DNA from: Escherichia phage vB_EcoM-G3G7
DNA length: 64,000 nt
Reading direction: 5' to 3' (one strand)
Sequence record: MZ234040.1
This document shows, piece after piece, positions 25,325-27,147 of this stretch (its first letter is position 1; each line of letters begins with the position of its first letter). The notes beneath the pieces are model-generated. The model ran no database searches, was not told the DNA's origin, and saw only the letters and a list, made by a program, of their open reading frames with translations. The position numbers and the translations under genes are program-made.

Positions 25325-25325
<1 letters not shown>

Positions 25326-25522
25326 TGGCTTGGCACCATGAAACTTGGGCTATTGTTATTGTAAATAGCGGTTTAGTTGGTACTAGTAATGGGCAATTTT
25401 GTGTATTTACTAGTGAAAATAGAGCATGGGAGGAATGCCTTAAATTAAGAGAAAAGAATCCTGATGTTGAACTAGTAGTAAAGAAAACTAAACTGCCTTT
25501 ACCATGGAAAACGTATGAATAA
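25325..25522 (+). CDS. small early protein (cd-pseT intergenic cluster)
   Basis: 65-aa [19 protein letters not shown]...; TAATG overlap with the pseT stop. Confidence 0.5.
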
Positions 25523-25715
25523 CCTAGAAAAGATTTATCGTCTTTGTGATAAAATTGAAAAAGAAAAGAAATATCTATTTTGTCTATGGCCTATTGTTGA
25601 CGGAAGAGTAGGCCTAGATGTTCTTGATTATGAAACAGAAGACAAAGTAGATGGCGCAACTTTTGATAACGCTTTGGATGTTATTGATTGGCTCGAAGAA
25701 AATTATGTGAGGTAA
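25515..25715 (+). CDS. small early protein (cd-pseT cluster)
   Basis: 66-aa acidic ORF overlapping the previous stop by 8 nt. Confidence 0.5.
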   Translation: MNNLEKIYRLCDKIEKEKKYLFCLWPIVDGRVGLDVLDYETEDKVDGATFDNALDVIDWLEENYVR

Positions 25716-25717
25716 AT

Positions 25718-25993
25718 ATGTTTCCGACTTACTCTAAAATCGTAGAAGTAGTGTTTAGCCAAATTATCGCTAATAATATGTTTGAAAAACTTGATAACGC
25801 AGCTGAGCTTCGAATCCATGCTCAAGTGACTCATGTATTGAACACTTTGCTTCCAGACCAGGTGGATTCTGTTGCCATCACGTTGTATCCAGGTTCCGCG
25901 CATATCATTGTCGTATTCGGTCTTGATGCTGAGCTAGTCATCAAAGGCGATATTCGCTTTGAATCACAGACATCAGAATTCAAAGCAATTTAA
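25718..25993 (+). CDS. small early protein (cd-pseT cluster)
   Basis: 91-aa ORF; GAGG 5 nt upstream of ATG 25718. Confidence 0.5.
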   Translation: MFPTYSKIVEVVFSQIIANNMFEKLDNAAELRIHAQVTHVLNTLLPDQVDSVAITLYPGSAHIIVVFGLDAELVIKGDIRFESQTSEFKAI

Positions 25994-25994
25994 A

Positions 25995-26024
25995 GTTTAC
26001 TTTACGGTAGAGTTGTGATATTAT
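25995..26024 (+). promoter_or_regulatory. T4-type early promoter
   Basis: GTTTAC at 25995-26000, 18-nt spacer, TATTAT at 26019-26024. Confidence 0.55.
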
Positions 26025-26054
26025 AGCTCTACCAAAACAAATGAGGAAATTGAA

Positions 26055-26582
26055 ATGAGCGAATGGTTTGAAGAAGATAAGGTTTATCGCTTTAAAGCTG
26101 GATATAAAGATATTTTTAATGAAACTTGCGGGGCTAATAAACGAATTGCCCAGTTTATTGGGGAAAATTCATTTAAAGTAAAAATAGATCCTGCGAAAAA
26201 TGTTATTAGCATTAAACGTGAAATTGATGATTGTTGGTATAAAGCTGTTGATGTAATGGGTGAATCCTATAAAGTTAGCCCGTTATTTTCAATTGCTTAT
26301 ATGTTAGAATATTCTTTTTTCGAAGAAGTTCAAAAAGATGATTCTGTAAGTAAATTTGAAATTAAAACTGATAAAGAAATTAAGTGGAAAGTAGTAGGTA
26401 TTACTGGTTGCATGTTTTATATCTATGCTCAAACTGATACAAAGGAAGAAGCTAAAAAGAAAGCTCTAGAATATCTTGAAGAGTATGAAGAAGGCCCGGT
26501 AATGATTACTCAAGATGCTGAATTAGTTTCTGTCAAATTAGTTAAAAACGTTGAAAGTAAGGAGCTGGGATCAACATGCTAA
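26055..26582 (+). CDS. early protein, unknown function (175 aa)
   Basis: ORF with GAGG upstream of ATG, downstream of an early promoter. Confidence 0.6.
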   Translation: MSEWFEEDKVYRFKAGYKDIFNETCGANKRIAQFIGENSFKVKIDPAKNVISIKREIDDCWYKAVDVMGESYKVSPLFSIAYMLEYSFFEEVQKDDSVSKFEIKTDKEIKWKVVGITGCMFYIYAQTDTKEEAKKKALEYLEEYEEGPVMITQDAELVSVKLVKNVESKELGSTC

Positions 26583-26812
26583 GTGAAAAACCAATTACTG
26601 TTAAAGAATTCCAAGAAAAAGTTAAACTATTTGCGCAGGAATTAGTAAATAAGGTTTCTGAACGATTTCCCGAAACATCGGTTCGTGTTATTACCGAAAC
26701 TCCTCGTTCAGTATTAGTAATTGTGAATCCAGGTGATGGCGATCAAATATCGCATCTTAAACTGGATTTTGATGGATTAGTTGAAGCACAAAGGGTGTAT
26801 GGCGTACTATGA
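26576..26812 (+). CDS. small early protein (78 aa)
   Basis: Overlapping start/stop (translational coupling). Confidence 0.5.
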   Translation: MLSEKPITVKEFQEKVKLFAQELVNKVSERFPETSVRVITETPRSVLVIVNPGDGDQISHLKLDFDGLVEAQRVYGVL

Positions 26813-27147
26813 TGAATTTAACTGATATAATTGATAATTGTCTTGAAAATGATACTGGCGATCATAGAGCGCTTGATTCTGAAACAGCACAGTTCATTAG
26901 AATAACTTTAATGAATGATACTTTGGTGAATAGTATTCATCCTTCTGTGTATGATGCTATTATTGTGACGAAGTATCCAGTTGAGCTTCACAAAAAGATG
27001 GTTGGTGCAATTTTTATTGATAAGAAAAACCGCTTTAAAGATGGGCAGAATATAATTAGTTCTGTTATTAAAAGTATAACTAAACTTCGTCACGAAATTT
27101 ATCGTGTTGAAACTGCTAAATCTGCTTATCTGGTGATTATGAAATGA
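26809..27147 (+). CDS. small early protein (112 aa)
   Basis: ATGA overlaps on both sides. Confidence 0.5.
   Translation: MMNLTDIIDNCLENDTGDHRALDSETAQFIRITLMNDTLVNSIHPSVYDAIIVTKYPVELHKKMVGAIFIDKKNRFKDGQNIISSVIKSITKLRHEIYRVETAKSAYLVIMK

Follow-up and report, generated by a model that had tools for sequence, protein, structure and literature searches.

Gene order and gene content between pseT and cd

The window, a 64,000-nt stretch of Escherichia phage vB_EcoM-G3G7 (MZ234040.1), comes from a Tequatrovirus and is 100% identical in this region to Escherichia phage vB_EcoM-CHD2BS1. Between pseT and cd lie six plus-strand ORFs of 65–175 aa, as a sequence-only reading of this DNA had reported. They are genes and not chance ORFs: pairwise dN/dS values with Tequatrovirus orthologues are 0.02–0.13, indicating purifying selection, and the T4 orthologues have been seen as proteins.

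The upstream neighbour is pseT (24420..25325, + strand), encoding polynucleotide kinase/3'-phosphatase with 92% identity to T4 PseT; the identical record MZ234027 annotates this interval as pseT. The cd.5 orthologue (25325..25522, +; 65 aa, 100% identity with T4 Cd.5) follows directly, overlapping the pseT stop by 1 nt in TAATG. The annotated 75-aa form of T4 would begin at 25295; the ATG at 25325 is preceded by a GGAG Shine-Dalgarno sequence 8 nt upstream, and the QL01 orthologue is likewise 65 aa and begins at the pseT stop. After an 8-nt overlap comes the cd.4 orthologue (25515..25715, +), whose acidic 66-aa product (pI 4.35) is 97% identical to T4 Cd.4 and 51–55% identical to its orthologues in RB69, JS98, and QL01. 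The cd.3 orthologue (25718..25993, +; 91 aa, 98% identity, dN/dS 0.02) has a GAGG Shine-Dalgarno sequence and starts beyond a 2-nt spacer, with no overlap with the cd.4 stop. A 61-nt spacer containing a sigma-70 early promoter and a hairpin separates cd.3 from orf175 (26055..26582, +; 175 aa), a gene that T4 lacks and that appears as a clean insertion relative to T4 DNA. The end of orf175 overlaps the cd.2 orthologue (26576..26812, +; 78 aa) by 7 nt; residues 7–78 of the product are 96% identical to T4 Cd.2, and the T4 reference carries one extra G near the cd.2 5' end, which alters its annotated N-terminus. The cd.1 orthologue (26809..27147, +; 112 aa, 98% identity) has ATGA overlaps on both sides, with cd.2 and with cd. 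The latter gene, encoding dCMP deaminase (27144..27725, +; 99.5% identity with T4 Cd), carries the series on into 31.2 and 31.1.

The sequence-only reading had described one chain of six ORFs linked by ATGA/TAATG overlaps. This holds for the TAATG at pseT/cd.5 and the ATGA at cd.2/cd.1, and fails at the 2-nt cd.4/cd.3 spacer and the 61-nt cd.3/orf175 spacer. Because the latter is the single break, the chain divides into 3 + 3; with the promoter and the hairpin in this spacer, the six genes are parts of two coupled strings, one being alc…pseT–cd.5–cd.4–cd.3 and the other orf175–cd.2–cd.1–cd–31.2–31.1. The same tight packing spans a much longer stretch than the six ORFs, with alc (22733) at one end and gene 31.1 (28270) at the other.

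A further extra gene, orf106 (24103..24423, +; 106 aa), which had also been noted, is indeed present between pseT.1 and pseT with ATGA overlaps on both sides. T4 has no counterpart at that site; tblastn gave no match in the T4 locus, and the DNA alignment shows a clean indel. The gene matches phrog_2364 (E 7e-58), has a dN/dS of 0.04, and occurs in 708 phage records, including those of RB69 and JS98, adjoining pseT; Pfam, PDB, and PADLOC searches with its product gave no match.

The claim that the ORFs have no recognisable motifs did not survive for four of them. Three exceed their Pfam thresholds (cutoff 27 bits in each case), namely Cd.5 with PF25744 T4_Y13H (109.4 bits), Cd.3 with DUF7355 (113 bits), and Cd.2 with DUF7320 (115.5 bits), families that were built on T4 proteins, and the 175-aa product has a GoF-like N-terminal domain. 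Cd.4, for which no Pfam family exists, matches phrog_2360 (E 2.7e-41) over residues 1–66 of a 66-position profile, and Cd.1 matches phrog_2063 (E 4.1e-50). A sequence search of PDB with the seven proteins (the six and orf106) gave no match, and NCBIfam and PADLOC gave nothing meaningful for the block proteins; the sole PADLOC-DB match was Cd.5 to PDC-M08A (14 bits, E 0.013), with none for the other six proteins. Cd.3 and Cd.1 were considered as possible paralogues (phmmer reciprocal E ~0.05; BLASTP 0.002 over 32 aa) and rejected at a profile-profile probability of only 1.7%. The Rfam scan of 22000-30000 returned nothing at threshold, repeats within the block were at chance level only, and no paralogue of orf175 was found within the window.

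The synteny comparison with T4 cd.1–cd.5 placed five of the six genes. In T4, cd.5–cd.1 (NC_000866, 132696-134032) have the same order, with pseT upstream, cd downstream, and the same internal early promoter, and the proteins are 96–100% identical by tblastn. The window differs by an additional 528-nt gene between the promoter and cd.2 and an additional 321-nt gene ahead of pseT. The early, accessory, and variable character proposed for the block was borne out. It contains the early promoter, and the T4 Cd.1–Cd.5 proteins have been detected and their RNAs classed as early (PMC9697503, supplementary files 4 and 6). T4 cd.1–cd.5 and their Bas37 orthologues were scored 'Non-essential' by HIDEN-SEQ, a transposon-sequencing screen (bioRxiv 10.1101/2025.11.20.689424, supplementary files 7 and 8); the T4 genes can all be dispensed with on E. 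coli K-12. As to content, orf175 and orf106 are missing from T4, cd.1 and cd.5 are missing from RB69 and JS98, and RB69 and JS98 carry an additional ORF227c-like gene; Cd.1 orthologues of 45–53% identity occur in some Dhakavirus contigs and are absent from QL01 as well. The five named T4 proteins that the ORFs match are themselves uncharacterised, and the block is thus not a set of well-characterised housekeeping genes. We conclude, with a probability of roughly 80%, that this stretch represents the early accessory 'cd.x' block of T-even phages, consisting of five T4 Cd orthologues and a GoF paralogue, orf175, that T4 lacks.

The early promoter and its embedded hairpin

The promoter in the cd.3/orf175 spacer (25996..26024, +) was identified by a promoter scan and is of the sigma-70 type, with a -35 element TTTACT, a 17-nt spacer, and a TG-extended -10 element TATTAT, in agreement with the PST/T4 early-promoter consensus TTTACW-N17-TAYWAT (PMC4122927). 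It is the counterpart of T4 Pe133295 between cd.3 and cd.2, where the T4 record notes an early promoter; T4 has exactly the same promoter sequence, and the element is conserved in JS98, QL01, and RB69. The transcription start is predicted near 26031. In T4 this promoter drives cd.2. In the window orf175 adjoins it, takes over both the promoter and the Shine-Dalgarno sequence, and hands translation on to cd.2 through the 7-nt overlap.

A 12-bp hairpin (26006..26033, +), with the arms GGTAGAGTTGTG and TATAGCTCTACC around an ATAT loop, overlaps the promoter spacer and the -10 element. The RNA fold has an energy of -18.8 kcal/mol (z = -3.96). Across nine sequences from three genera, 90.7% of cells are paired, whereas with the pairing partners slid against each other the figure does not exceed 62%; two pairs are altered on both sides. 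Both arms can be present only in transcripts that read through from upstream. An intrinsic terminator was rejected because the hairpin lacks a U-tract, and none was called here in the terminator scan.

The arrangement resembles the PeSL cassettes (Arbiol et al. 2010; Comeau et al. 2014, PMC4122927), in which an early promoter, a stem-loop, and a Shine-Dalgarno sequence with start codon occupy a spacer of ~60 nt; as in those cassettes, the spacer adjoins an ORF that differs between close relatives, here orf175. However, the PeSL stem-loop lies just upstream of the promoter (PMC4122927), and in the cd.3/orf175 spacer the hairpin at 26006-26033 is located inside the promoter and not ahead of it. 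Only one such element lies beside orf175, and therefore the two-PeSL mini-circle mechanism is not applicable as described.

orf175 and the GoF family

The orf175 product consists of an N-terminal domain (~aa 1–95, nt 26055-26339), a linker (~aa 96–108), and a C-terminal domain (~aa 109–160). In hhalign, the orf175 family aligned to T4 GoF with a probability of 69.5% (E 4.2e-5) and to an alignment of eight GoF sequences with 89.9% (E 1.7e-6, 115 columns). T4 GoF matches phrog_3710, the PHROG of orf175 itself, at 8.1e-12, and in the other direction orf175 matches phrog_622, that of GoF, at 1e-4. The motifs FExxKxYxF, AxxxGMxPFxV/I, and ExxFFxEVxxP are common to both. At the level of sequence, these comparisons show orf175 to be a paralogue of T4 GoF, homologous over the N-terminal ~100 residues. 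The canonical goF and orf175 occur together on contigs 3300010279_000008, 3300045988_128797, and 2974787500_000001.

A homologue occupies the same cd.3/cd.2 slot in Dhakavirus (JS98 orf212 and QL01 gp219; phrog_5804), with the same promoter-hairpin spacer upstream. It is 184 aa compared with 175 aa in orf175 and aligns over the full length, including the C-terminal WKV...TKE.A motif; its identity is 27–30%, whereas the neighbouring genes have 42–77%. JS98 orf212 also matches a goF-labelled PHROG at 1.4e-6. No gene of the block diverges faster than orf175, which has 30% identity between Tequatrovirus and Dhakavirus, compared with 68–70% for Cd.2 and Cd; its dN/dS is 0.09. Its occurrence is patchy: it was found in 302 phage records, each at least 90% identical, of about 549 that have the region. 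A natural allele in Bas45 has an in-frame deletion of aa 14–103 and retains the C-terminal domain. Searches with Pfam, PHROG, and further resources found no relatives of this C-terminal domain. In an exhaustive phmmer search of 1.84 billion representatives, orf175 matched nothing except fragments of itself and a single artefact, P0006, a 1345-aa protein with about 17 near-identical repeats of ~79 aa, in which weak hits sum to a misleading E-value and which was rejected as a relative.

The AF2 models of orf175 had pLDDT values of 47.5 (single sequence) and 52.5 (16-sequence alignment), too low for a fold assignment. In the low-confidence model, the C-terminal domain has a beta-beta-alpha-beta-beta secondary structure, and linker residues 96–108, which are variable and contain indels in the family alignment, have a pLDDT below 50. 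Foldseek against BFVD gave 21 hits at E <= 1e-3, all of them uncharacterised phage proteins of 130–260 aa, mostly from T4-like phages.

The N-terminal homology places orf175 in the LSm-like GoF/Frd.2/MotB.1 family, although similarity to Frd.2 and MotB.1 themselves was undetectable. In members of this family, which are non-essential, a flexible linker joins an LSm-like N-terminal domain to a C-terminal domain that varies; the N-terminal fold is a bent five-stranded antiparallel beta-sheet of LSm/SH3-like type (Kim et al. 2025, PMC12152347). Like GoF (ComC-alpha), orf175 has the N-terminal domain followed by a variable linker and a C-terminal domain of its own, and as in the family it is an early gene that is dispensable, being naturally missing from T4 and Bas37. 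It differs from GoF in its C-terminal domain, which is unrelated, and in its position at cd.3/cd.2, while goF lies at 39.2/cef; the two coexist. GoF(D25Y) stabilises RNA, whereas for wild-type GoF the reporter assay measured no effect (PMC12152347), and for this reason to say that orf175 'works like GoF' carries little functional weight. In the alignment, Asn22 of orf175 stands opposite GoF D25.

Possible functions and their meaning

[quoted passage not shown] We propose this mode of action tentatively, as a possibility to which we would give somewhat less than even odds. Among the genes of the block, orf175 alone, being homologous to GoF, is a plausible candidate for a part in host takeover at the RNA level. 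A more elaborate scheme appears improbable to us. In it, orf175 would be an RNA-binding LSm-like effector whose C-terminal module recruits or blocks a host factor of RNA metabolism or RNA sensing (Rho, Hfq, RNase E, or a defence triggered by RNA), and phages of the T6 and RB32 types would thereby gain a host-range trait missing from T4. Separately, the covarying hairpin would be a switch that links firing of the promoter inside the block to read-through from the pseT operon. As for the five Cd.x products, they are small and soluble, and most are acidic or near-neutral (pI 4.4–7.9); most likely they would act by binding a host or phage protein stoichiometrically, in circumstances that laboratory growth does not reproduce. 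A literature search on the gene names and DUF numbers found nothing relevant, and the genes of this block go unmentioned in PMC8076793 and in the CRISPRi-ART paper.

The sequence-only reading had seen in this block a likely site of host-takeover and anti-defence factors. At least one of the six proteins might accordingly be a small early inhibitor of a strain-specific host immune system: the genes lie in an early, non-essential, indel-prone region, the rapid divergence and patchy occurrence of orf175 would fit such a role, and HIDEN-SEQ recently found comparable unannotated T-even genes, nrdC.1, tk.4, and bas37_0203, to be anti-defence genes. The results for the block itself did not bear this out. 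PADLOC gave no meaningful match, and T4 cd.1–cd.5 showed no depletion and no conditional phenotype in two HIDEN-SEQ comparison tables (log2FC -0.07 to 0.43, q = 1; bioRxiv 10.1101/2025.11.20.689424). The text of that paper does not name any of these genes among its hits for RexAB, RnlAB, CBASS, DarTG1/2, M9 medium, or uropathogenic isolates. That screen used T4 and Bas37, both of which are devoid of orf175, so orf175 lies outside its reach; the GoF-type domain of orf175 points to RNA and not to a known inhibitor family. An anti-defence role in the block is therefore unlikely.

For Cd.2, a DinI-like role, with binding to RecA or UvsX filaments and modulation of recombination or the SOS response, would be in keeping with a weak match of residues 16–58 to Pfam DinI (PF06183; E 0.036), with a similar size and alpha-beta-beta pattern, and with the GenBank record of phage Shinka, which labels a neighbouring gene 'putative DinI'. 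However, the score of 14.9 bits is below the Pfam cutoff of 24.2, and hhalign of the Cd.2 alignment against E. coli DinI gave a probability of 0.4% over 16 aligned columns. The Cd.2 relatives form 55 database clusters, all T-even-like and all with DUF7320 only, and the sequence search found no PDB relative. We consider this function very unlikely.

T-even phages have many free-standing homing endonuclease genes of the seg (GIY-YIG) and mob (HNH) types, and both orf175 and orf106, which are presence/absence genes relative to T4, carry the label 'putative homing endonuclease' in the records of the BASEL phages Bas36 and Bas45. This reading is effectively refuted at the domain level, and hardly any weight remains on it: Pfam, NCBIfam, and PHROGs show no nuclease domain in either protein, be it GIY-YIG, HNH, LAGLIDADG, or another, orf175 has zero histidines and no GIY or YIG motif, its N-terminal domain is a GoF homologue, it is driven by a resident promoter and translationally coupled to cd.2, its Dhakavirus homologue in the same slot looks like vertical divergence, and the annotation methods of the BASEL paper speak of putative homing endonucleases solely in connection with comparative genomics, with no domain evidence for these genes.

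In summary, the block is ordinary T-even accessory content, most of which was already known; it is not a novel six-gene cassette but the T4 cd.5–cd.1 block with one gene that T4 lost or never had. The added value is the assignment of orf175 to the GoF family, and the overall importance of the result is limited. The assignment removes the 'putative homing endonuclease' label that some GenBank records give to orf175 and adds to the GoF family a naturally variable member that is absent from T4. The C-terminal-only allele of Bas45 and the 30%-identical Dhakavirus homologue provide comparative material for dissecting this family, and the promoter-embedded hairpin, kept across three genera with compensatory changes, is a small, testable candidate for a regulatory element.

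Gene order, junctions and the cd.3/orf175 spacer

The plus strand of the window runs in the T4 early direction, with the gene order rnlA, alc, pseT.3, pseT.2, pseT.1, orf106, pseT, the six small ORFs (cd.5, cd.4, cd.3, orf175, cd.2 and cd.1), cd, 31.2, 31.1, 31 and rIII. Around the six ORFs, a 3.8-kb stretch matches Escherichia phage vB_EcoM-CHD2BS1 (MZ234027, Tequatrovirus) at 100% identity and many further T-even phages at 98–99%. The coordinates and sizes that the sequence-only reading assigned to the six ORFs were both confirmed, and the ORFs are real genes; among those Tequatrovirus alleles that could be collected, pairwise dN/dS (Nei-Gojobori) was 0.13 for cd.5, 0.12 for cd.4, 0.02 for cd.3, 0.09 for orf175, 0.06 for cd.2 and 0.11 for cd.1. 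The same reading described a single overlap-linked chain, which held for pseT/cd.5 (TAATG), cd.5/cd.4 (8-nt overlap), orf175/cd.2 (7-nt overlap, the cd.2 start lying 7 nt ahead of the orf175 stop), cd.2/cd.1 and cd.1/cd (both ATGA). However, cd.4 and cd.3 are separated by a 2-nt gap, and cd.3 and orf175 by a 61-nt gap. Tight packing spans alc (22733) to 31.1 (28270), so the six ORFs do not form a separate unit but are pieces of two longer strings.

The 61-nt spacer contains a sigma-70-type early promoter on the + strand (25996–26024; TTTACT, 17 nt, TG-extended TATTAT). The promoter sequence is the same in T4, whose record places early promoter Pe133295 between cd.3 and cd.2. Within the promoter is a 12-bp hairpin (26006–26033, + strand; −18.8 kcal/mol, z = −3.96). 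Pairing is kept in 90.7% of its cells over nine sequences (Tequatrovirus, Dhakavirus and Mosigvirus), compared with at most 62% when the partners are slid, and two pairs are altered on both sides; as the sequences are few and a single evolutionary event probably accounts for the changes, this covariation is suggestive and not proof. An intrinsic terminator was rejected because no U-tract follows the hairpin. A transcript begun at the internal promoter would be without the left arm, and the hairpin would be expected to form only in read-through RNA from the pseT string. The layout is similar to that of the PeSL cassettes of T4-type phages (PMC4122927), although their stem-loop lies upstream of the promoter and the present hairpin lies inside it.

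Two further observations concern the downstream region. In the identical record MZ234027 (locus extract 6726–7271), the 31.2 and 31.1 orthologues (window 27725–28270) bear the product name 'tail fiber protein', which looks like a mis-annotation; T4 names them as hypothetical protein and SH3 beta-barrel protein. At 29589–29672, Rfam gave a sub-threshold hit to Atu_C8, an sRNA of Rhizobiales (31.4 bits, E 0.003; gathering score 50), which is probably no more than a structured intergenic element downstream of a 30.9-like gene.

The five cd orthologues and orf106

Five of the six ORFs are orthologues of named T4 genes by tblastn (Cd.5, 100%; Cd.4, 97%; Cd.3, 98%; Cd.2, 96%; Cd.1, 98%). Pfam matches far over threshold were obtained for Cd.5 (PF25744, T4_Y13H), Cd.3 (DUF7355) and Cd.2 (DUF7320), while Cd.4 and Cd.1 each matched one PHROG without assigned function. 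No solved structure, NCBIfam match or PADLOC match was found for Cd.1–Cd.5. A DinI-like assignment of Cd.2 was rejected (sub-threshold Pfam match, hhalign probability 0.4%), as was a paralogous relationship of Cd.3 and Cd.1, for which profile comparison gave no support. For Cd.5, the 65-aa form with its start at 25325 is favored over the annotated 75-aa form of T4, because a GGAG Shine-Dalgarno sequence lies 8 nt upstream, the Pfam model covers residues 2–62 and the orthologue of the Dhakavirus QL01 is 65 aa.

The T4 reference carries one extra G near the 5' end of cd.2, AAAGGAATTCC vs AAAGAATTCC in the window (T4 NC_000866 locus extract 5250–5262 vs window 26576–26620), and the annotated T4 Cd.2 therefore begins MKNRLLLKEF and not MLSEKPITVKEF. 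Since cd.2 is 240 nt in the T4D annotation used by HIDEN-SEQ, a transposon-sequencing study, the extra G would be a strain polymorphism or else a mistake in the reference.

Only cd.4, cd.3 and cd.2 are common to Tequatrovirus, Dhakavirus and Mosigvirus: cd.5 is missing from JS98 and RB69, and cd.1 from QL01, JS98 and RB69. These three phages carry an extra gene of ~71 aa (RB69 ORF227c type) between cd.4 and cd.3, which Tequatrovirus lacks.

In T4, the cd.1–cd.5 RNAs are all classed as early, and all five proteins have been detected, classed as early (Cd.2), middle (Cd.1, Cd.3 and Cd.4) or late (Cd.5) (Wolfram-Schauerte et al. 2022, PMC9697503, supplementary files 4 and 6). HIDEN-SEQ called T4 cd.1–cd.5 'Non-essential' (17/17 to 32/32 TA sites hit), and likewise the orthologues in the BASEL phage Bas37, including an orf106 homologue (Humolli et al. 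2025, bioRxiv 10.1101/2025.11.20.689424). In two comparison tables of that study, cd.1–cd.5 have log2FC of −0.07 to 0.43 with q = 1, and they are not among the hits named in its text.

The extra 106-aa ORF, orf106 (24103–24423, + strand), was confirmed and is missing from T4; it has ATGA overlaps with pseT.1 and pseT. It occurs in 708 phage records from three genera, including RB69 and JS98, always adjoining pseT, and its dN/dS of 0.04 indicates strong constraint. T4, not the phage of the window, is the exception here. No function-giving match for orf106 was found in Pfam, PHROGs, PADLOC, NCBIfam or PDB.

orf175 and the GoF family

The sixth ORF, orf175 (26055–26582), is missing from the T4 locus by tblastn, and DNA alignment shows it as a clean insertion that uses the promoter, Shine-Dalgarno sequence and ATG of T4 cd.2. 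A tblastn search placed it, at 90% identity or more in every case, in 302 phage records, among them T6, RB3, RB9, RB33, AR1 and PST, which is about half of the 549 records sharing the region; RB69 and Bas37 lack it. Relaxed thresholds gave a match at 29–30% identity in the Dhakavirus phages QL01 and JS98, to a 184-aa gene (JS98 orf212) at the equivalent position, between this spacer and cd.2, and the two proteins can be aligned end to end. No other gene of the block has diverged as far between Tequatrovirus and Dhakavirus as orf175 (30% identity vs 42–77% for its neighbors). Bas45 (Escherichia phage PaulHMueller; locus extract 2483–2740) has a natural 85-aa allele with residues 14–103 deleted in frame, keeping the first 13 residues and a nearly unaltered C-terminal domain. 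Elsewhere in the window, an 81-aa ORF between frd.1 and frd (14098–14343), abutting the frd start, matches nothing in the T4 frd region and is a further T4-absent insert.

When orf175 alone was used as query against 1.84 billion representatives, only fragments and one repeat artefact were returned. The lead to GoF, a T4 RNA-stability protein, came from the PHROG scan, in which orf175 matched its own phrog_3710, then phrog_5804 (JS98 type), phrog_622 and a goF-labeled family. T4 GoF itself is a member of phrog_622 (4.6e-38) and matched phrog_3710 at 8.1e-12 and phrog_5804 at 1.6e-5; JS98 orf212 matched a goF family at 1.4e-6. By hhalign, the orf175/orf212 alignment matched T4 GoF at 69.5% (E 4.2e-5) and an eight-sequence GoF alignment at 89.9% (E 1.7e-6, 115 columns), with the common motifs FExxKxYxF, AxxxGMxPFxV/I and ExxFFxEVxxP. 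The part homologous to GoF is residues 1 to ~100; for the C-terminal ~70 residues, with a predicted beta-beta-alpha-beta-beta order, a sub-threshold DUF4288 hit was the only match. Canonical goF is present on contigs with orf175, which is therefore a paralogue and not a displaced goF.

The best AF2 model of orf175 has five strands in residues 10–92, at a mean pLDDT of just 52.5, too low to confirm the fold. Foldseek against BFVD with this low-confidence model gave 21 matches at E ≤ 1e-3, all uncharacterized phage proteins of 130–260 aa, mostly from T4-like phages, which fits a broad phage family. In PDB searches the matches were SH3-like or FeoA-like and all sub-significant, and no similarity of orf175 to Frd.2 or MotB.1 was detected. 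Placing orf175 in the GoF family is a modest addition, and Kim et al. may already have it implicitly in their PSI-BLAST tree.

Possible roles of the block genes

In its architecture (N-terminal domain, linker, variable C-terminal domain), orf175 is like the LSm-like GoF/Frd.2/MotB.1 family of Kim et al. (2025, PMC12152347), whose members are all non-essential; in that study, a reporter RNA was more stable with GoF(D25Y) and not with wild-type GoF. The D25 position corresponds to Asn22 of orf175 in the hhalign alignment. Family membership tentatively suggests, with a probability of about 0.35, that orf175 is an early modulator aimed at RNA or RNA machinery, its partner being set by its own C-terminal domain. 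Frd.2 (13320–13706, 99% identical to T4 Frd.2) also belongs to this LSm-like family, so the phage has three or more genes of this kind, counting goF, which is outside the window.

An anti-defence role for block genes is compatible with the location and with the patchy distribution and rapid divergence of orf175, but it has no positive evidence, and cd.1–cd.5 were negative in the screening data; these screens used T4 and Bas37, both of which are without orf175. The BASEL records label orf175 and orf106 as putative homing endonucleases, but no nuclease domain was detected in either (Pfam, NCBIfam, PHROGs), orf175 has zero histidines, and the annotation methods of the BASEL paper name putative homing endonucleases solely in a comparative-genomics context.

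In summary, the six-ORF block pointed out by the sequence-only reading is real, but its content is ordinary for T-even phages: five T4 genes that are named but uncharacterized, early and non-essential, plus a hypothetical gene known from many sequenced phages, which can be placed in the GoF family. A T4 specialist would find nothing surprising in this interval.
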